DNA of 64,000 nt from the NCBI RefSeq assembly GCF_030013595.1, contig NZ_CP122768.1; one strand, 5' to 3'. A model generated the notes under the pieces. The model had not been told where the DNA came from. It did not search any database and was given only the letters and a program-made list of their open reading frames with translations. This document shows, one piece after another, positions 10,566 through 57,590 of the stretch (positions are counted from its first letter, which is position 1; every line of letters starts with the position of its first letter). This stretch comes from Escherichia coli. GTDB taxonomy: Bacteria > Pseudomonadota > Gammaproteobacteria > Enterobacterales > Enterobacteriaceae. The position numbers and the translations under genes were made by a program.

Positions 10566-12152
10566 TTAATGCTCGCGGGTCTGGTGGAACTGAACGTCCG
10601 GATAACGTTCCTGCGCCAGACGCAGGTTGACCATGCTGGTAGCGATGTAAGCGAGGTTATCGCCGCCATCAAGCGCCAGTTGGCTTTCGTTCTTACGCTT
10701 GAACTCTTCGAATTTCTTCGCGTCCGCACATTCTACCCAGCGGGCAGTGGCAACGTTGACTGACTCATACACTGCTTCAACGTTGTATTCGCTCTTCAGG
10801 CGCGCTACCACCACATCAAACTGCAGCACACCAACTGCACCAACGATCAGGTCGTTGTTGGAGATCGGACGGAACACCTGCACCGCGCCCTCTTCGGAAA
10901 GCTGTACCAGCCCTTTGAGCAGCTGTTTTTGCTTCAGCGGATCTTTCAGGCGGATACGACGGAACAGTTCCGGTGCGAAGTTCGGAATACCGGTGAACTT
11001 CATCATCTCCCCCTGGGTAAAGGTGTCACCGATCTGAATAGTGCCGTGGTTGTGCAGGCCGAGGATATCGCCCGGATACGCTTCTTCAACGTGCGAACGG
11101 TCGCCCGCCATAAAGGTCAGCGCGTCGGAGATCACCACATCTTTCGCGGTGCGCACCTGGCGCAGCTTCATGCCTTTTTCATATTTACCGGATACCACGC
11201 GCATAAACGCCACGCGGTCGCGGTGTTTCGGGTCCATGTTGGCCTGAATTTTAAATACGAAGCCGGTAAATTTGTCTTCGCTCGCTTCTACGGTACGGGT
11301 ATCAGTCTGACGCGGCATCGGCGCAGGTGCCCACTCCACCAGGCCATCCAACATATGATCGACGCCGAAGTTACCTAGCGCAGTACCGAAGAATACCGGA
11401 GTGATTTCGCCCGCAAGGAATAATTCTTTGTCGAACTCGTTAGACGCGCCTTTCACCAGTTCCAGTTCGTCACGCAGCTGCTGCGCCAGATCTTCACCAA
11501 CCGCAGCATCGAGATCCGGGTTATTCAGCCCTTTAACAATGCGGACTTCCTGAATGGTGTGGCCTTTACCACTCTGATAAAGATAGGTTTCATCTTTATA
11601 AAGGTGGTAAACGCCTTTAAACAGCTTGCCGCAGCCAATCGGCCAGGTGATCGGCGCACAGCCGATTTTCAGCTCGTTCTCAACTTCATCGAGCAGTTCC
11701 ATCGGGTCGCGGATATCACGGTCAAGTTTGTTCATAAAGGTGAGGATCGGCGTGTCACGCAGACGGGTAACTTCCATCAGCTTGCGGGTACGATCTTCAA
11801 CACCTTTTGCGGCGTCGATAACCATCAGGCAGCAGTCCACCGCCGTCAGGGTACGATAGGTATCTTCCGAGAAGTCTTCGTGCCCCGGGGTGTCGAGCAG
11901 GTTAACCAGGCAATCGTGATACGGAAACTGCATCACAGACGTAGTAATGGAGATCCCACGCTGCTTTTCCATCTCCATCCAGTCCGACTTAGCGTGCTGG
12001 TTGGAACCACGGCCTTTTACTGTACCGGCGGTCTGAATGGCCTGTCCGAACAGCAGCACCTTCTCGGTGATGGTAGTCTTACCGGCGTCTGGGTGAGAAA
12101 TAATTGCAAAGGTTCTTCTTTTCGCTACCTCTGCGGCCAAAAGGCTTGTCAT
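10566..12152 (-). CDS. prfC: peptide chain release factor 3 (RF3); 5' end replaced by prophage attR sequence
   Basis: Translation [25 protein letters not shown]... matches PrfC; N-terminus here is [16 protein letters not shown] versus my recollection [17 protein letters not shown] for E. coli K-12, with the K-12-type 5' end found displaced at 57451-57501. Confidence 0.92.
12091..12104. repeat. attR core (direct repeat GGGTGAGAAATAAT)
   Basis: Identical 14-mer at 57437-57450; flanking sequence diverges between host and phage on each side. Confidence 0.65.
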
Positions 12153-12172
12153 AATTGTTGTCTCGTTGATTA

Positions 12173-12287
12173 TGTACAATCATATGTACAAAGAAAAATT
12201 CATGCCGCTGATTGTACATTTTGGAGGTATCAGAGCATAGCAGAACATGATCAGTAGGTGTATTTGTAGCCAAAGCTCATTTGTACA
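12173..12287. repeat. cluster of four TGTACA hexamers (putative integrase arm-type sites, attR arm)
   Basis: TGTACA at 12173, 12185, 12213 and 12282 in A/T-rich context just inside the prophage; similar cluster at the attL arm. Confidence 0.35.
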
Positions 12288-12306
12288 TGCCGCAATCTTC
12301 GTTCTA

Positions 12307-12356
12307 TTGACACTGTTTATTCACCCAGTTAAAAATAAGACTGTATACAAACACAG
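12307..12356 (+). promoter_or_regulatory. putative sigma70 promoter with LexA (SOS) box
   Basis: TTGACA at 12307-12312; CTGTATACAAACACAG (CTGT-N8-ACAG) at 12341-12356, immediately upstream of the dinI-like ORF. Confidence 0.6.
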
Positions 12357-12371
12357 TATAGAGGGAATTTT

Positions 12372-12591
12372 ATGCGTATTGAGATCTGCATAGCCAAAGA
12401 GAAAATGACTAAACTGCCAAACAGCGCTGTGGATGCGTTAGAAGGAAGAATTAACCCGACGCACCGGTAAGCGTTATGAAGATGTAGAGGTGATCGTAAA
12501 AGCCACCAGCAATGATGACCTTTCTGTTACACGCACCGCCGATAAAGATTCAGTTAAAATTTTTGTTCAGGACACTCTGAAAGATACCTAG
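12372..12591 (+). pseudogene. DinI-like protein gene, apparently frameshifted
   Basis: Frame 1 gives [23 protein letters not shown] then stops at 12468; an overlapping frame continues [49 protein letters not shown] to 12591; together they resemble DinI. Confidence 0.6.
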
Positions 12592-12644
12592 GAATTTGCT
12601 GACGAGTGATTTAGTTCATCATCTCTGGACACAATTCACTTGTA

Positions 12645-12673
12645 TTGACTTTAAGATCATTAAATTGTAATAA
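12645..12673 (+). promoter_or_regulatory. putative promoter of the membrane-protein/RT operon
   Basis: TTGACT at 12645-12650 and a TG-extended A/T-rich -10-like element about 17 bp downstream; AAGGA Shine-Dalgarno before the ATG at 12683. Confidence 0.4.
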
Positions 12674-12682
12674 TTCAAAAGG

Positions 12683-13387
12683 ATGGGGCAGTTTTTTCCT
12701 CTTGCGTATGCAAGGGCGGCTCTGATAATGAACAGTAATATTTTACTGTTGAGCTTATGCTCACTGATCCTGCCGAGCAGGATGTTCAACGGTTCCAATA
12801 TATCCTGCCCCTTCCGCTTTTTAAAAGGATATTTTATGCATGAAAATATTTGGTTTACATATAAAGCCCGTATTCAAGCGCACCATAGACTAGAATGGCT
12901 TGAAAAACACTCTCAATTTATCCTCGTTTGGTATGCTATATTGAGTGCGGTACTTTCAATTATAACGTTACGATTTCCAAAATTTCTAGGAGATAATACA
13001 GATATCGTTGCGGCAATACTTTCAGTGGCTCTACTGGGTATTTCTCTGATCGTATCTAACCTAGATTATCGTGGTCGAGCAATAGCCATGAGAAGGAATT
13101 ATATTGCACTACAGAGACTCTATTTTGATATTAATAACGGCCAACAGTTAACTCTTGAACAGAAAGAAAAATATTTTAATTTGCTCAATGAGGTTGAGAA
13201 TCATCGTGACATAGATGATAAAGTTTCAAGGGTAACTCAAGTTGGACTTACGACTAGACTCCCCACACAAAAAGAAAAAATAATTGTTAAATTATGGATA
13301 TTACGTCGAATGTTTATTACTGTCGGCCTTTATATCCTCCCATTAATATGTCTTTGGATTGACTATGAATGCAAGCAGAGTTTTTAA
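12683..13387 (+). CDS. multi-helix membrane protein, partner of the reverse transcriptase
   Basis: 234-aa ORF with hydrophobic segments (ILLLSLCSLILPS, FILVWYAILSAVLSIITL, IVAAILSVALLGISLIVSNL, ITVGLYILPLICLWI); overlaps the RT gene; alternative start at 12836 also has an SD. Confidence 0.7.
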   Translation: MGQFFPLAYARAALIMNSNILLLSLCSLILPSRMFNGSNISCPFRFLKGYFMHENIWFTYKARIQAHHRLEWLEKHSQFILVWYAILSAVLSIITLRFPKFLGDNTDIVAAILSVALLGISLIVSNLDYRGRAIAMRRNYIALQRLYFDINNGQQLTLEQKEKYFNLLNEVENHRDIDDKVSRVTQVGLTTRLPTQKEKIIVKLWILRRMFITVGLYILPLICLWIDYECKQSF

Positions 13388-14735
13388 AAAGTCATTCTCG
13401 AAAAAAAACCTTCTAAAAGTATACAATGAAAAAATCAAAGAATCAGGAGCGATTGGCATAGATCGGATTCGTCCATCAAAACTTGATTTAACAATAAAGA
13501 ATGAGATCACTTTTATTTTTGAAAAGGTTAATTGTGGAAATTATAAATTTACAGCATATAAAGAAAAATTAATATCTAAAGGGGCTAACTCTATCCCCAG
13601 ACAGATTTCCATACCAACTGCCAGGGACAGAATTACCCTTAGGGCTCTCTGTGAATGCCTTACAGAAATATATCCTAACTCCAGATTAAAACTACCACAT
13701 ACAGTAATTGACTTATTGAAAAATGCATTAAACAGCGATCTATATGCTGAATATGCAAAAATAGATCTCAAAAGTTTCTATCCTTCAATTGAACATAAAT
13801 TGATATTTAATGCAATAAAAAATAAGATTAGAAAAAAAGAAATTAGGCAGTTAATAACATCATCATTAATCGTGCCTACTGTAAGTGGAAGTACAGGAAG
13901 CAAAGGTGTCCCTAATAATACCAGAGGAGTACCTCAGGGGTTAGCAATATCAAACATTTTAGCTGAAATATCACTATCTGATTTCGACAATGAAATCAAT
14001 AAAATGCATGACATATGGTACATGCGATACGTTGATGACATTCTTATTTTAACGCAAAAAGATCAAGCAACAAAAATTGCATCTCATATCATTGATAAGC
14101 TTCAATCATTAAATTTAAACCCACATCCATTAAATGAAGAGAACTCAAAATCCAAAGTAGGCAGCTTGGATGAAAGTTTCAACTTTTTGGGCTACCACAT
14201 AAAAAATCGAGAATTATTGATAAAACATGAGAGCATTCTTAGATTTGAGTCATCCTTAGCAAAAATTTTTACTGCATATAGACACGCTCTACTACAAGCT
14301 AAAAATAAGCGCGATAAAGAACGAGCTGTTGCATATTGTCAGTGGAAACTAAATCTTAGAATTACGGGGTGTGTGTTTGAAGGTAAACGATTGGGATGGG
14401 TATCGTACTTCTCACAAATAACGTCAACAGCTCAACTTCGAGCTGTTAATCATACGATCAATAATCTTATCCGCCGATTCGGCCTTTCATCAGAAATAAA
14501 ACCAAAGTCTTTGATTAAAACTTTCTATGAACTCCGCAGGGGTAGAGCGGAGACTTTTAAATACATACCTAACTTTGACAATCTACATATATCTCAGAAA
14601 CGAGAAATTGTTTCTATGTGGATAGGGAAAGAGAATGAAAAAAAACTTAGCAATAGTGAAATAGAGAGAAAATTTAAATTTAAAATTGCGAAATCAGTAA
14701 AAGAGCTTGAAGAGGACATTTCAGGGATATCATAG
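13365..14735 (+). CDS. reverse transcriptase (Abi/retron-like, family unassigned)
   Basis: RT motifs in canonical order: KIDLKSFYPSIEH, GVPQGLAISNILAEISL, YMRYVDDILIL, FNFLGYHI, plus a ~170-aa C-terminal extension; ATG at 13365 (TTG at 13359). Confidence 0.88.
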   Translation: MNASRVFKKSFSKKNLLKVYNEKIKESGAIGIDRIRPSKLDLTIKNEITFIFEKVNCGNYKFTAYKEKLISKGANSIPRQISIPTARDRITLRALCECLTEIYPNSRLKLPHTVIDLLKNALNSDLYAEYAKIDLKSFYPSIEHKLIFNAIKNKIRKKEIRQLITSSLIVPTVSGSTGSKGVPNNTRGVPQGLAISNILAEISLSDFDNEINKMHDIWYMRYVDDILILTQKDQATKIASHIIDKLQSLNLNPHPLNEENSKSKVGSLDESFNFLGYHIKNRELLIKHESILRFESSLAKIFTAYRHALLQAKNKRDKERAVAYCQWKLNLRITGCVFEGKRLGWVSYFSQITSTAQLRAVNHTINNLIRRFGLSSEIKPKSLIKTFYELRRGRAETFKYIPNFDNLHISQKREIVSMWIGKENEKKLSNSEIERKFKFKIAKSVKELEEDISGIS

Positions 14736-14847
14736 ATATGTAATCCATTAAATCCTTTATATATAAAGCAATAAACACACTATTTAAATTCACAAATCAG
14801 CCGCAGTATCCTGCCATGACAAGTTGCTGCGGCATATCACAAAACGA

Positions 14848-15432
14848 TTACTCCATAACAGGGACCGCAGGCCACTCAATATCAGGTGCAGTTGATGTAT
14901 CAACACGGTTCAGCAACACCCGATACTTTTTCCAGGCTTCCAGCAATGAGTTTTCTTCCTCCGTTGCGATTTCCAGATCTACAGCATCCTGAAGTGGCGC
15001 AATATGCTCACTGGCTACCTGCATCAGGTTGTTTTTTGTTTCTTCCGCCTCCCGGATCCGGAACAGTTTTTCTGCTTCCGTATCCTTCAACCAGGCTGTG
15101 CCGTTCCACTTCTGATATTCCCCTTCCGGCGATAACCAGGTAACATTTTCCGGTAACGGACCGAGTTCAGAAATAAATAACGCGTCGCCGGAAGCCACGT
15201 CATAAACCGTTTTACCCCGATGATCTTCAACGAGATGCCACGATGACTCATCACTGTTGAAAACAGCCACGAAGCCAGCCGGAATATCTGGCGGTGCAAT
15301 ATCGGTACTGTTTGCTGGCAGACCTGTATGAGGCGGAATATATGCGTCACCTTCACCAATAAATTCATTAGTTCCGGCCAGCAGATTATAAATTTTTATG
15401 GTCCGTGGTTGTTCACTCATTCTGAATGCCAT
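14848..15432 (-). CDS. tfa: tail fiber assembly protein
   Basis: 194-aa translation [37 protein letters not shown]... matches lambda Tfa as recalled. Confidence 0.92.
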
Positions 15433-18400
15433 TATGCAAGCCTCACAATATAGTTAAATGCGATGTTTTTGACGGTGTTTTCCGCGTTACCAGCAGCGTT
15501 AACGGTGATGGTGTGTCCATGTGAACCAATCGCAACGGAGTGCGTGTGTGCACCAATACCGACAGTATGTGCGTGTGCACCTGCAGATGCTGCTGTGCCG
15601 GACAGTGAGTGGCTATGGTTACCATCTGTACTGGTATTAGCTAACGCCCCCGTAGACATACCTACTGAGCCTTGTACACCCCAGGTATTTTGACCTGAGC
15701 TTGTATAACCATATTGATAAGTATCTTTAAAAACACTGGGGTTAAATCGACGGCCATCTCTATGGCTGTGATTACCAGCTGCATTCGTGCTGCCACTTAA
15801 ACTATGGGTATGCGCACCAGTGTTATTCGTGGATTTAGTGCCGTAATCAAACGACGATGTGGTTTTCGTCCCCAAATCAGTACTGGATGCGCTGGCGCTG
15901 TGGGTATGCGATTTTATGCCGTCCTGTTCCTGAGACAATACGGCACGACCACTGGCGGGCTTGCCCTTAATCGTCCAGCCACGCATATCAGGGATCACGC
16001 CTGACGGATAAGCGGCTGCAAGTTTCGGGTAGGCAGATTTGTCAAAAGTCTGCCCCTGCATCAGGGCATAACCAGACGGAACGGTATCTGATGGCCACGG
16101 AATTGGTGCGCCAACTGGGTAGCTTTCTGGTGGAAGATTTTTCGAGGTATAAACTTCTGCCCAGCCTTCCTCAAAACCATAGCCATCTCTTGAGGAACGG
16201 TAGAACAGACCTCCATTTCTGTAATGCGCCTTCATCTGCAGGGTCCGGCAACTTCCGACTCCGGTATAGAAGTTAACCAGAATATAGCTGTCGCCAGAGC
16301 GGGTGACATTGTAAGCGCCTGATTCGGCATTCCAGGGAACGCCACCATCCGCATCGGCATATGTATCCGTTGCCCTTCTGGCAAAAGCAGCCACATGCGC
16401 GGCGGTTAAAGTAATATCTTTTGAACCATCAAACTCAACCCCAGAAACCAGTCTTGGCGTTTGCAGCTTTGTTGCTGTCAATGCGTTACCGTTCAGACTT
16501 GCAGACAGTTTGGTTCCAATAACCAGTTCGCCGGTTGCGTTATCAATAGCAAACGGTCTTAATGTATTCCAGCCACCATAAACATCACCTTGATTGGTAA
16601 GCAGCAGGTAAGTTTTAGCGCCATCATTACGCCATAATGCCCCATACTCCCCACCTATCATTCGAATCTGATTACCACCACGCGCTACAATTTCGTCTGT
16701 GGCAAAAAGTTTTTTGCACGACAAGTTATCGTTAACGATTAACGAATGGGACTCATAAAAACCACGCCCACTCTTAAAATCAAGGATAACGTCCGCCGCG
16801 ATACATTCAGTCGCCGGATTTGTTGCCCCAAACTTATAGGTCGTATCATTAACAACGAGATCAGCACCAGGTGCGGATATTGACAGGCCATCTTCGATAA
16901 ACGCAAAAACAGGGAAAGCAGCGCCATCAACATAGAACACAGAGCGCAAATCATCGCCCTTATTACTCATCATTATTGAGTGGATGGCTCGTTCATTGTT
17001 TTGATATTGCCAGAACATTCCATAAGCATAACGCCCCCTGTCAGTCCAGCCACCAGGCATAACAAATCCGTTAAACTCGCAGTTATTCATCGGATCGCCT
17101 GCGGTTCTCGTTGCCGTGGTGATAATGACCCTTGATGCCAGTTCGCTTACTGAGCCAGCAGAACGCATAACAACAACAGGGTAATATTTTCCAGATGTTG
17201 CACCTGCAGGAGCGTTAACCCGCACATAACGCATACCACGCTTATCAGCAAAGTCTGTTTTACTGACCGCGTTAATGTTGTTCAGGAAGCGTCCCTTATC
17301 GGGTATATCAGCGCCGTTCTGGTCTTTCTGCAGACGTTTCTCTGCATTGTCATAGGCTGATTTTACTGCCTTTGGCGTTGCCGCCAGCGTTTCAGACGAA
17401 CTGTTGGTCGCACAGCTGAGCTGTACTATCCCCTTTTTCGTCGTACTTGCATCCTCAAGCGCCACGGCGGATGCAATATCCTCTGCCCGTTTTGCCGCTG
17501 TCTCGGCGCGCGTTGCCGCGGATTCCGCCGTACTTTTGCTCTGTGCTGCCGCCGTCGCACTGCCAGCTGCCTCTGTCGCCTTCGTGGATGCTGTCGTGGC
17601 GCTGCCCTTCGCTGCGGACGCTTGTCTGGTCGCCTCATCTTTTGAAGCAGACGCCGATGATGCCGATGACGCCGCCGAACTGGCGGACGATGCAGCTGCC
17701 ATTTTTGAGGATTCTGCGCTGGTTTCCGACGCTTTCGCGTTCGTCTCGGATGTCTTCGCTGCGGAAGCAGACCTCGCTGCTGCGCTGGCCTGTTCAGTGG
17801 CTTCGCCAGCCTTCGTTGTGGCTGTTGAAGCAGACGATGCGGCACTTTCTGCCGATTTTCCGGCGGCGGTGGCACTGGCTGAGGCCTGCCCGGCACTTGT
17901 TGACGCGGCACTGGCAGACGACGCAGCCGCTGTTTTTGAGCCTGCCGCAGCCGAGGCGCTCTGTCCCGCTGCCGTTTCAGAAGACCTGGCGTTTGTCTCA
18001 GACGTCTTTGCCGCCTTCGCGGAATTGCCTGCCGCCGTTGCCGAGGAAGCGGCACTACTGGCGCTTGATGATGCGTTCGTTTCTGATGATTTCGCTGCCT
18101 CTTTTGAGGCCGCCGCATCCCGGGCTGAGGTGGCTGCTTCTGACGCCTTCGTGGTCGCGGCGGATGCAGAAGTTGCTGCTGATTGTTGTGACGCTGCCGC
18201 ATTCGTTTCTGACGTTTTCGCCGCAGCGGCACTGGTAGCTGCCGCGCTTTTTGAGGACTCTGCAGCAGCAGCACTTTTCGATGCTTCACTGGCCTTTGTT
18301 GATGCCGTTCCTGCGCTGGAAGATGCTGACTGAGCCGACGACGCGGCCTGTCCGGCTGACGTGCTGGCTGCGCGTGCTGAGCCTGCAGCATCAGTCGCAT

Positions 18401-18836
18401 GGGTTGCCGCCTCACGGGCTGATGTGCAGGCATCGCTGGCTGACTTCTTCGCGGCTGCCGTGTTCTGTGCCACCGCGGACGCGTTACGCGCCACCTCTTC
18501 CACCATCAGTTCAAAACGGCGCAGTGCCTCAGGACGGGCATCATCCTCCGTCATGGCACCGAGAAAATCATTCAGCGTACCGGGTCGGGAATCTTCATAC
18601 ACGGTGATGGTCCCGGCATGTGACGGCGGGAATCCCTCCACCAACAGAATAACGCTGTACTGCCCGTACTCAACGTCCATGCTGTAACGCCCGGCTTCAT
18701 CCGGATTTTCTGAGGCCAGCGTGTTCACCACCACCGTGGTGCTGTTACGTTTTGCTTTCAGCTGGATTGTGCAGTTCTGTACCGGTTTTCCTGTGCCGTC
18801 TTTCAGTACACCTGAAATCTTTACTGCCATATTCAC
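15432..18836 (-). CDS. stf: side tail fiber protein
   Basis: N-terminus [26 protein letters not shown] as in lambda Stf; long Ala/Ser-rich repeat region; C-terminal HxH repeats (GAHTHS, GNHSHS, GAHAHT, GSHGHT) and NYIVRLA end. Confidence 0.9.
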
Positions 18837-55982: not shown

Positions 55983-57206
55983 TCAGGTAGATTCTGGGCC
56001 AGTACAAGTAACGATCGATTCAACTCTCTCCCACCATGCCTGATATGCTTTACGCTGTTCTTCTAGATAATCGCTCTTGTCATAAACCTGCCAAACCCCT
56101 GGCAGTTTATGGCCGAGCATTATTTCTGCAATATGAGGAGCAGTAAGATCAGAAAAGTTTGTTCGTGCTGTTCGCCTCAAATCATGAAGAGACCAATGAG
56201 GGAATTGATGCCCCAAACGCCTCCATGCGTACTGCATTAAATTGTAAGGCAGCGACTGCAATGATGTTCGACCAACGGGTTCCCTGCTTCCTTCCTTAGT
56301 AAAAAGCATATCGGAACCATTGTTCATAGAGATAGCGTTCTTTATAAGCTCCTCCACCGGTTCAATAATGGGCCTCTTTAGCGGTTCGCCTGTTATCTCT
56401 CCAGTCTTATGTCGTTCTGGTGGTACAGTCCATACCTTATTAATGAAATCAAAATCGCCCACCCTGGCAGTAATTAGCTCTGAACTACGGCAGCCAAAAT
56501 GCAGCAATAGCTTAATGAAGGCCCGGTATTTAGGAACCATTCGAGAACCATCGATCGCAGAATAAAGGATTTTAATTTCATCATGTGTCAGAAACCGTTT
56601 CTTCTGACCTTTACGGATATCCATATCTTTACCCGTGATATCCGACAGCGGGCGAGTTTCAATGAGCTTTCTCTTATACGCCCAGACATGGGCCTGCTTT
56701 GCGTTAATTAGCAATCGGTCTGCTATTGCTGGAGTCTTAGTGCTAAGAGGCTCCAGGACTTCTAACCAATCATGCAATGTAGCTGCATCGTGAGGGATAT
56801 TCCCGATTTTAGAGAACAGGTGCAGCTCAAACGAGCGGAGTATCTGTTCAGAACCTTTTTTATTTTTTACACAATATGCTTCATACCAGGCACGGATCAC
56901 AGACTCTACCGTCATGGCTTCAGTAGCTTTTCGTTTTTCAGCCTGCTTGACCAATCGTGGATTACGGTTTGACTCAAGTTCACCACGGAGACGGATAACT
57001 TCTTCTCTGGCCTCTTTTAATCCAGTTGCCGGGTAAGTTCCGATATCAAGACGCTCACCTTTCCCTGCCCATTGATAACGATATTGGAACACTACGCGAC
57101 CTTTCGGTGATACTCTGACAGACAGACCATCACGATCGGATTTAACCAAAACCTTATCACGTTCCTTTCCAACGACTGAACGCAACCACGCATCAGACAA
57201 CGCCAT
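55983..57206 (-). CDS. int: tyrosine integrase (P4-like, N-terminal arm-binding domain)
   Basis: 407-aa ORF; N-terminal LSVRVSPKGRVVFQYRYQWAGKGERLDIGTYP; catalytic-region motifs LHDLRRTARTNF and IMLGHK. Confidence 0.9.
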   Translation of the reverse strand: MALSDAWLRSVVGKERDKVLVKSDRDGLSVRVSPKGRVVFQYRYQWAGKGERLDIGTYPATGLKEAREEVIRLRGELESNRNPRLVKQAEKRKATEAMTVESVIRAWYEAYCVKNKKGSEQILRSFELHLFSKIGNIPHDAATLHDWLEVLEPLSTKTPAIADRLLINAKQAHVWAYKRKLIETRPLSDITGKDMDIRKGQKKRFLTHDEIKILYSAIDGSRMVPKYRAFIKLLLHFGCRSSELITARVGDFDFINKVWTVPPERHKTGEITGEPLKRPIIEPVEELIKNAISMNNGSDMLFTKEGSREPVGRTSLQSLPYNLMQYAWRRLGHQFPHWSLHDLRRTARTNFSDLTAPHIAEIMLGHKLPGVWQVYDKSDYLEEQRKAYQAWWERVESIVTCTGPEST

Positions 57207-57225
57207 TACTCACCTTGTACAAATC

Positions 57226-57272
57226 GCAAAACACCTCTGCTGTTTTGTACATTATGTACAAGCATATGTACA
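57226..57272. repeat. cluster of four TGTACA hexamers (putative integrase arm-type sites, attL arm)
   Basis: TGTACA at 57226, 57246, 57255 and 57267, between the int start and the attL core. Confidence 0.35.
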
Positions 57273-57436: not shown

Positions 57437-57450
57437 GGGTGAGAAATAAT
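57437..57450. repeat. attL core (direct repeat GGGTGAGAAATAAT)
   Basis: Identical to 12091-12104. Confidence 0.65.
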
Positions 57451-57501
57451 GGCAAAAGTGCGGCGCTTCGCCACCTCTTGCAAATAAGGAGACAACGTCA
57501 T
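57437..57501 (-). pseudogene. displaced original 5' fragment of prfC
   Basis: Minus strand reads ATG ACG TTG TCT CCT TAT TTG CAA GAG GTG GCG AAG CGC CGC ACT TTT GCC ATT ATT TCT CAC CCC = [22 protein letters not shown], then diverges into phage sequence with a stop. Confidence 0.75.
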
Positions 57502-57590
57502 AATTCTTTCTTCTTGAGTAAGCGGCATCGCGCCGCGCTTGTTGAAAACGAAAAATTGCGGCTATTTTACCCATCAACGGGGGGAGGCAA

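Follow-up and report, generated by a model that had tools for sequence, protein, structure and literature searches.

A decayed prophage dinI cassette with two putative LexA operators directly upstream of a DRT10 module in Escherichia coli

Directly upstream of a reverse-transcriptase (RT) operon in an Escherichia coli prophage lies a predicted LexA-controlled promoter followed by a dinI-like gene that is split between two reading frames, and the locus raises the question of whether this gene is truly dead and whether SOS-induced transcripts from its promoter could run on into the RT operon. The chromosomal dinI gene of E. coli is under SOS-box control. We analyzed the locus within a window of 64,000 nucleotides, the whole stretch of DNA considered here (RefSeq assembly GCF_030013595.1, contig NZ_CP122768.1).

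The window holds a lambdoid prophage of about 45 kb in the E. coli chromosome. In a comparison with K-12, host homology stops at 12132 and restarts at 57437 with an overlap of 42 bp, which places the phage within the 5' end of prfC, the N terminus of which has been replaced by a phage-supplied MTSLLAAEV... sequence. The dinI cassette forms the att-proximal end of the prophage, within its last few hundred bases, and has the prfC att arm on one side and, on the other, the genes preceding those for tail fibres and their assembly. The landmarks of this setting are the following.

10566-12152, minus strand: prfC
14848-18836, minus strand: tail-fibre assembly and tail-fibre genes
50592-51284: CI-type repressor of 230 aa, read from its translation as an HTH plus a putative S24-type self-cleavage domain (GDSMCPT motif)
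57.6-59.1 kb: yjjG, rimI and holD

The cassette itself is made up of a promoter, two putative operators and the gene.

12307..12336, plus strand: PdinI core promoter (-35 TTGACA at 12307-12312, 17/18-nt spacer, -10 TAAAAA/AAAAAT at 12330-12336; 10/12 matches in a promoter scan)
12311..12330, unstranded: putative LexA box 1, CACTGTTTATTCACCCAGTT, filling the -35/-10 spacer (matrix score 19.0, rank 3 in 64 kb)
12339..12358, unstranded: putative LexA box 2, GACTGTATACAAACACAGTA, an exact CTGT-N8-ACAG (matrix score 19.3)
12372..12620, plus strand: dinI-like pseudogene, identified by alignment to intact alleles, Pfam DinI, PDB 1GHH and the PGAP label 'frameshifted'

An earlier sequence-only reading of this DNA had reported a near-consensus TTGACA, which is indeed found at 12307-12312, and a single LexA box. 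That box exists, with the CTGT-N8-ACAG core CTGTATACAAACACAG at 12341-12356, but there are two boxes, and the one at 12311-12330 had been missed. Box 2 begins 3 nt past the -10 and spans the expected transcription start, and the two putative boxes flank the -10 and overlap the promoter, as is looked for in operators of the SOS (LexA) regulon. With an approximate LexA weight matrix derived from published E. coli sites, so that its scores are rough as well, only three sites in the whole 64 kb scored above 11, at 50801 (22.1), 12339 (19.3) and 12311 (19.0), while the background in the window was 10.8 or less. The CTGT-N8-ACAG pattern occurs three times in the window against 0.65 expected, a number that was reached in 1 of 100 shuffles.

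The layout is shared widely among alleles. Box 1 has the perfect ...ATACAG form in most of them, and the positions relative to the ATG (-61/-62 for box 1, -33 for box 2) are kept in alleles down to about 60% protein identity; a single strong box is found at -34 in Klebsiella phage P18-100 and at -39 in Gifsy-2. On the 5' side, conservation of the cassette begins precisely with the -35 hexamer (ten loci, five att sites), the record of phage mEp460 annotates the same promoter, and a Shine-Dalgarno sequence, AGAGGGA, lies upstream of the ATG at 12372. The window promoter differs from that of E. coli IHE3034 at 5 positions in 65 nt and is not visibly decayed, which may mean that some function has preserved it or only that it is short. 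We also considered promoter conservation as a sign of selection and discarded it as uninformative, since 5 of 65 nt is about the neutral divergence expected for the haplotype.

The coding part is in a very different state. Lesions were called by aligning the window allele with the intact 82-codon gene at the same locus of IHE3034 (WP_001217550.1) and with eight further copies, and four were found: a single G inserted (+1) at 12441 in the context TTA-G-AAGG, where there is no homopolymer; W73 changed from TGG to TAG at 12589-12591; W79 changed from TGG to TGA at 12607-12609; and an 8-bp deletion, GTTCATTA, after 12612 between GTTCAT direct repeats, with which the original stop is lost. A frame offset had been noticed near 12441-12450 from the letters alone, and the inserted G falls within that interval; the alignment to intact homologues, which had been proposed as a check, reduces the offset to this one base and reveals the other lesions. 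From the dinI start codon only a 32-codon ORF (12372-12470) is translatable. The +1 frame, KEELTRR...LKDT*, terminates at 12591, where the gene had been taken to end; the frame does end there, but this stop is itself a nonsense codon (TGG to TAG), with the TGA and the 8-bp deletion downstream of it.

The pattern of substitution points in the same direction. Against the consensus of intact alleles, the window allele has changed nonsynonymously at 12 codons, including the two nonsense codons, and synonymously at 5; between intact alleles the differences are mainly synonymous, with up to 13-14 synonymous versus 3-4 nonsynonymous (e.g., 13:4). The 12:5 codon pattern fits a gene from which constraint was lifted some time ago. 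PGAP/RefSeq labels the gene 'DinI-like family protein, frameshifted', and this label and the four lesions bear out the inactivation that the sequence-only reading had suspected. Judged by its coding sequence, the dinI-like gene is a true pseudogene, from which a DinI-like protein would be impossible to make.

That the gene is DinI-like, as had been proposed, is confirmed by a match of the repaired window translation to Pfam DinI PF06183 (E 2.1e-10) and by an end-to-end match of the intact allele to E. coli DinI (PDB 1GHH, residues 1-81, E 2.9e-13). The NCBIfam PRK10597 match (1.7e-20) reaches 73 bits against an equivalog cutoff of 111, and this family is therefore a paralogous phage family. 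E. coli chromosomal DinI (PDB 1GHH; RecA-DinI complex 7YWA) and the intact allele have a C-terminal TWESAD(E/D)WF motif in common, and both tryptophans lost from the window copy are part of this motif (TWESADEWF), which is common to E. coli DinI. An uninterrupted ORF of about 80 codons with a C-terminal TWESAD-WF is absent from the window copy, which is, on these alignments, a DinI-family (PF06183) pseudogene and not a functional member.

Comparison across loci indicates what kind of element has decayed here. Homology among copies runs from the -35 hexamer to the stop codon, and the flanks differ between loci on both sides. Copies are found in lambdoid prophages with att/integrase settings at prfC, yecD, ssrA, dusA and tRNA-Pro, and the slot between the cassette and the tail-fibre assembly gene is occupied by DRT10, ynaM/ydfK/pin, the type III secretion system (T3SS) effectors EspM2/EspW, NleC, DUF4236 or nothing. 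At least 1344 of 5426 complete E. coli genomes (about 25%) carry the cassette, some in up to 5 copies, and it matches 96 sequenced phage records at the DNA level and 133 at the protein level, among them cdtI, mEp460, VT1-Sakai, many Stx phages, BP-4795 and Gifsy-2. By these boundaries the promoter and gene are a discrete module, and the cargo beside it is variable.

The DinI-like genes of lambdoid coliphages (cdtI, mEp460 gene 021, VT1-Sakai H0001, Stx1/Stx2 phages, BP-4795 dinI) are the same cassette. They are 90-93% identical in DNA between the -35 and the stop, have the same two putative LexA boxes and lie likewise beside att/int, at the other end of the genome from the tail-fibre genes. 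The coliphage copies sampled are intact 82-codon genes, whereas the window copy has four inactivating lesions, and DRT10 lies downstream of the cassette in 0 of the 96 phage records, unlike in the window. Salmonella Gifsy-1, -2 and -3 are alike in having a prophage DinI homologue with a LexA box near the ATG (for Gifsy-2, a DinI 42.5% identical and the box at -39). These Gifsy homologues are LexA regulated, as replacement of the LexA-box region abolished mitomycin C induction (PMC3121763), and nalidixic acid induced the three genes 5-23 fold (PMC8072944). For the E. coli prophage 'DinI-like' genes, we found no SOS data specific to the cassette in the literature searched.

The Gifsy order is LexA box, dinI, antirepressor gfoA/gftA and irsA, the locus follows the replication genes, and the key product is the small antirepressor. 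The prophage in the window differs in having a CI-type S24 repressor and two operators instead of one, and only chance frames of at least 25 aa are found in 12592-12835 where a Gifsy-like antirepressor downstream of dinI was sought. We rejected a Gifsy-type LexA-dinI-antirepressor operon, as 12592-12835 holds the DRT10 promoter-like site and the predicted ncRNA, and the prophage repressor is read as S24-type, whereas such an operon goes with a repressor that does not cleave itself. Phage 186 Tum is another LexA-controlled phage gene with a DinI-like C-terminal half (PMC3121763); it belongs to a P2-like phage and is a fusion of 146 aa that acts as an antirepressor, and the window gene is without the antirepressor moiety.

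The module that follows the pseudogene consists of the following features.

12645..12674, plus strand: DRT10 promoter-like site (TTGACT, 18-nt spacer, TG-extended AATAAT; 10/12 matches with TG in the scan)
12677..12822, plus strand: predicted DRT10 ncRNA, from its fold, the consensus fold of five alleles and its layout compared with the published ncRNA
12836..13387, plus strand: SLATT_5 two-transmembrane effector gene, 183 aa (PADLOC RTasSLATT 2.8e-57; NCBIfam SLATT_5 134 bits against a cutoff of 60; start as in PGAP)
13365..14735, plus strand: UG17 (DRT10) reverse transcriptase, 456 aa, ending in Ser456 (PADLOC RT_UG17 8.3e-159, full length 1-456)

DRT10 was described in 2025-2026 as a tripartite defence system (PMC12632851; bioRxiv 10.64898/2026.04.29.721553), in which an ncRNA of 137-143 nt lies upstream of SLATT (PMC12632851) and is expressed from its own native promoter (bioRxiv 10.64898/2026.04.29.721553). 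In Eco3DRT10 the SLATT and RT genes overlap and the priming residue is S456 (PMC12632851; bioRxiv 10.64898/2026.04.29.721553). The neighbour in the window is of this DRT10/UG17 (Eco3DRT10) type, with a 456-residue UG17 RT that ends in Ser, a SLATT_5 gene overlapping it by 23 nt and, upstream of SLATT, about 140 nt predicted to be structured. The UG17/DRT10 table of PMC12632851 lists RTs with the same C terminus and exactly this SLATT sequence, which ties the locus to the named constructs (Eco1, Eco2 or Eco3) only in part. On this evidence the RT module downstream is DRT10, comprising a UG17 RT, SLATT_5 and a predicted ncRNA.

The predicted ncRNA folds (z-score -2.2) into a basal stem, in which 12677-12692 pairs with 12805-12820, and four stem-loops, with a putative template loop at 12784-12805. 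It is about 96% conserved between haplotypes, and the consensus fold comes from five near-identical alleles, so no covariation is available. A search of Rfam with 12100-14900 (E up to 1) gave only a chance miRNA match and no family for the ncRNA. The sequence-only reading had let the 'membrane/RT operon' begin at an ATG at 12683; this did not hold, as that part corresponds in layout to the DRT10 ncRNA that has been described and the SLATT gene begins only at 12836; the mechanical 234-aa ORF from 12683 is, on this comparison, the predicted DRT10 ncRNA plus a shorter SLATT gene. The block of DRT10 homology starts at about 12615, right after the dinI stop, and the promoter-like site, which is kept in all DRT10-linked alleles, lies about 30 nt inside it.

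With the parts of the locus in place, other explanations of the broken gene can be weighed. Single-base indels are the commonest assembly error, and the frameshift might have been such an error in a gene that is really intact, as the sequence-only reading had allowed. We reject this and give it practically no credence, because the inserted G lies outside a homopolymer, two nonsense codons and an 8-bp deletion follow it as independent lesions, and a 241-nt query spanning all four lesions matches 74 complete E. coli genomes from many laboratories with at least 99% identity, IAI39, ETEC, APEC and ST131 strains included, in prophages at two integration sites, prfC and yecD. Since the two frames jointly spell most of the protein, programmed frameshifting or stop read-through might still yield a functional DinI-like protein, but this would require one -1 frameshift and the suppression of two different stops, and the deletion would alter the C terminus anyway; the loss of both tryptophans of the conserved motif and the excess of nonsynonymous changes, a relaxed-constraint pattern, also make such recoding barely conceivable. 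Somewhat less remote, and still very improbable in our view, is a new role for the remnant, for example as a 32-aa N-terminal peptide or as a regulatory leader in the form of an untranslated RNA. Its promoter, Shine-Dalgarno sequence and start codon are all undamaged, and the allele has spread over two att sites and several lineages, but we see no indication that selection acts on what is left. Hitch-hiking with the DRT10 haplotype next to it accounts for the spread, because the 74 genomes carry matching dinI and DRT10 alleles, each at 99% identity or more, and dinI has decayed elsewhere in other ways (a different frameshift, a 5' truncation, an IS insertion).

A more serious contender concerns the promoter, which might serve, or also serve, as an SOS-responsive DRT10 promoter, with damage-induced transcripts crossing the dead dinI and raising the level of ncRNA, SLATT and RT. 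The absence of a terminator, asserted earlier from the letters alone, was upheld: standard and relaxed scans found no plus-strand intrinsic terminator between 12592 and the SLATT start, the relaxed scan returning only AT-only stems and hairpins internal to the ncRNA, and none was found after dinI in IHE3034 or in one non-DRT10 locus. A minus-strand 'terminator' that appeared in other loci is an artefact, being the palindrome of LexA box 2. The two elements are co-oriented, with only about 50 nt from the dinI end to the DRT10 -35, and there is no promoter-like site between the ncRNA and SLATT, so that transcripts arriving from upstream should get past the ncRNA just as any from its own promoter would. 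There is also a precedent in Gifsy, where dinI is the first gene of a LexA-controlled operon (PMC3121763), and DRT10 responds to ssDNA metabolism, being tuned by way of SbcB and an SSB-like trigger (bioRxiv 10.64898/2026.04.29.721553), a biology not far from that of SOS. Finally, of the 187 E. coli genomes that carry this DRT10 type, 181 have an identical junction. An identical junction points, however, to one ancestral insertion and not to repeated selection for linkage, and the junction appears to stem from a single such insertion that was spread by recombination.

Diverged DRT10 loci argue against a built-in link. Nine diverged SLATT-RT loci on viral contigs (RT 62-82% identical) have no dinI upstream, and up to 3 kb upstream of them no LexA box scores 13 or more except for a marginal site in L036 (14.8, at -1399); two close relatives, L033 and L034, match SLATT and RT over the full length but have kept of dinI only a 3' remnant that lacks the promoter. 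A LexA/dinI element is not a conserved part of DRT10 across these nine loci, L033 and L034, and SOS control is therefore not intrinsic to DRT10. We rejected the 181/187 co-occurrence as evidence of a functional link, given the single common junction and the diverged DRT10 without dinI or LexA boxes. Moreover, IS2 lies between dinI and DRT10 in one strain, cargo of other kinds in this slot often points the other way, and published DRT10 systems have their own ncRNA promoter and provide defence from native flanks with no SOS induction (PMC12632851; bioRxiv 10.64898/2026.04.29.721553). The early stop leaves about 370 nt untranslated, with a C/G of 1.5 at 12500-12577, which may favour Rho termination, and Rho-dependent polarity of this kind could lower read-through. 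Entry of transcripts from the predicted LexA-controlled promoter into DRT10 seems physically possible, and the comparisons suggest that any SOS-DRT10 coupling is incidental and not built into DRT10. We regard a role of PdinI as an SOS-responsive DRT10 promoter as unlikely, and a measurable, functionally meaningful SOS effect on DRT10 through PdinI as unlikely at best. The fullest form of the idea strikes us as a long shot: that in about 190 E. coli genomes of this haplotype family SOS derepression of the two-operator promoter sends read-through into DRT10, that damage or prophage induction primes a telomerase-like defence, and that in the 74-genome lineage the cassette, no longer able to encode DinI, has become a pure SOS leader for DRT10.

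We consider it highly probable instead that the locus is a self-contained prophage cassette (promoter, two LexA operators and an 82-codon dinI homologue), here decayed, and that DRT10 is separate cargo adjoining it. In an intact cassette, LexA would hold the promoter off by occupying both boxes, the one between -35 and -10 and the one over the transcription start; upon DNA damage, RecA would become active, LexA would cleave itself and the promoter would fire. The DinI-like protein would then bind RecA filaments and tune their co-protease activity, which would matter to a prophage with an S24 self-cleaving CI-type repressor. LexA binding, SOS induction and RecA modulation are inferred here from what is known of E. 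coli DinI and of the LexA-regulated dinI homologues in Gifsy prophages. In the window copy, the frameshift, the two nonsense codons and the deletion would have decayed the coding part and left the promoter and operators recognizable, and DRT10 with its own predicted promoter probably inserted right after the dinI stop, into the variable slot between dinI and the tail-fibre genes.

The finding is real, ordinary and already known in kind; the pseudogene is already in RefSeq, and a decayed copy of a very common prophage gene teaches nothing new about DinI or SOS. SOS read-through into DRT10 is not favoured. What is now fixed is the anatomy of the locus, with two putative LexA operators, four lesions and the module edges. 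The two-operator layout and the near-constant position of DRT10 are minor additions that are apparently undiscussed in the literature searched; DinI, LexA and SOS are not mentioned in the main text of PMC12632851 or bioRxiv 10.64898/2026.04.29.721553, nor in the accessible portion of the supplements of PMC12632851. This E. coli DRT10 type lies almost always directly behind an SOS-type promoter, co-oriented and with no terminator in between. The published DRT10 studies, in the portions available, are silent on this promoter, and its presence upstream is relevant to anyone cloning DRT10 'with native flanks'.

The prophage is integrated at the 5' end of prfC (12091-12152 and 57437-57530), where a 42-bp stretch common to both prophage junctions constitutes the att core. 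The original 5' end of prfC is kept as a fragment at the opposite junction, and the phage supplies a new start and N-terminus (MTSLLAAEV...) in place of the original ones, so that the prfC promoter is presumably phage-supplied as well and divergent from PdinI. The hexamer TGTACA occurs 14 times in the window, and eight of these copies are clustered in the two att arms:

12173-12287: four sites of the form (A/T)TGTACA(A/T)
57216-57272: four sites of the same form

The integrase (55983-57206) probably uses these att-arm sites as its arm-type binding sites, and the one at 12282 precedes the dinI -35 element by 20 nt.

By the approximate LexA matrix, the top-scoring LexA-like site in the window is TACTGTATGCAAAAACAGTA (50801-50820, score 22.1), which falls within the coding sequence of the prophage CI-like repressor (ORF 50592-51284), in the stretch for the repressor linker and just 5' of the probable Ala-Gly cleavage region. 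The site could act as a roadblock or as an SOS-controlled promoter within the gene, or it could have arisen by chance.

The predicted DRT10 ncRNA region (window 12677-12835) is made up of a basal stem and four stem-loops, and the loop at 12784-12805 bears GUUC-AACG-GUUC, which may be an A-B-A' template like those reported for DRT10. Where the mechanical ORF that begins at 12683 overlaps this RNA, it is probably non-coding.

The dead-dinI allele is inherited along with one DRT10 haplotype, as 74 genomes match each of them at 99% identity or more. Prophages with this combination occupy either of two integration sites, prfC or yecD, and those at yecD include prophages of ST131 strains. When the window (12372-14735) is compared with the loci L003 and L002, the haplotypes differ at 18 nonsynonymous versus 14 synonymous codons in SLATT and at 22 versus 45 in RT, so SLATT is evolving fast. 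The dinI/DRT10 neighborhood has also decayed in other genomes:

L008:3066-3313 (strain CCUG 73778): dinI frameshift by an independent 1-nt deletion
L011:2181-3409: IS2 insertion separating dinI from DRT10
L033:1402-1530, and also L034: promoterless dinI remnant, truncated at its 5' end and followed by full-length SLATT and RT matches
Search match H195: IS1 within the SLATT gene

The slot next to the dinI cassette holds other cargo as well. In phage BP-4795 (L014:248-893), the LexA-box dinI cassette is followed by a co-oriented gene for a "putative avirulence protein," and O157/O55 prophages carry type III secretion system (T3SS) effector genes at this position. Whether SOS transcripts read through into cargo is therefore a question for the dinI-bearing prophage end as a whole rather than for DRT10 in particular.
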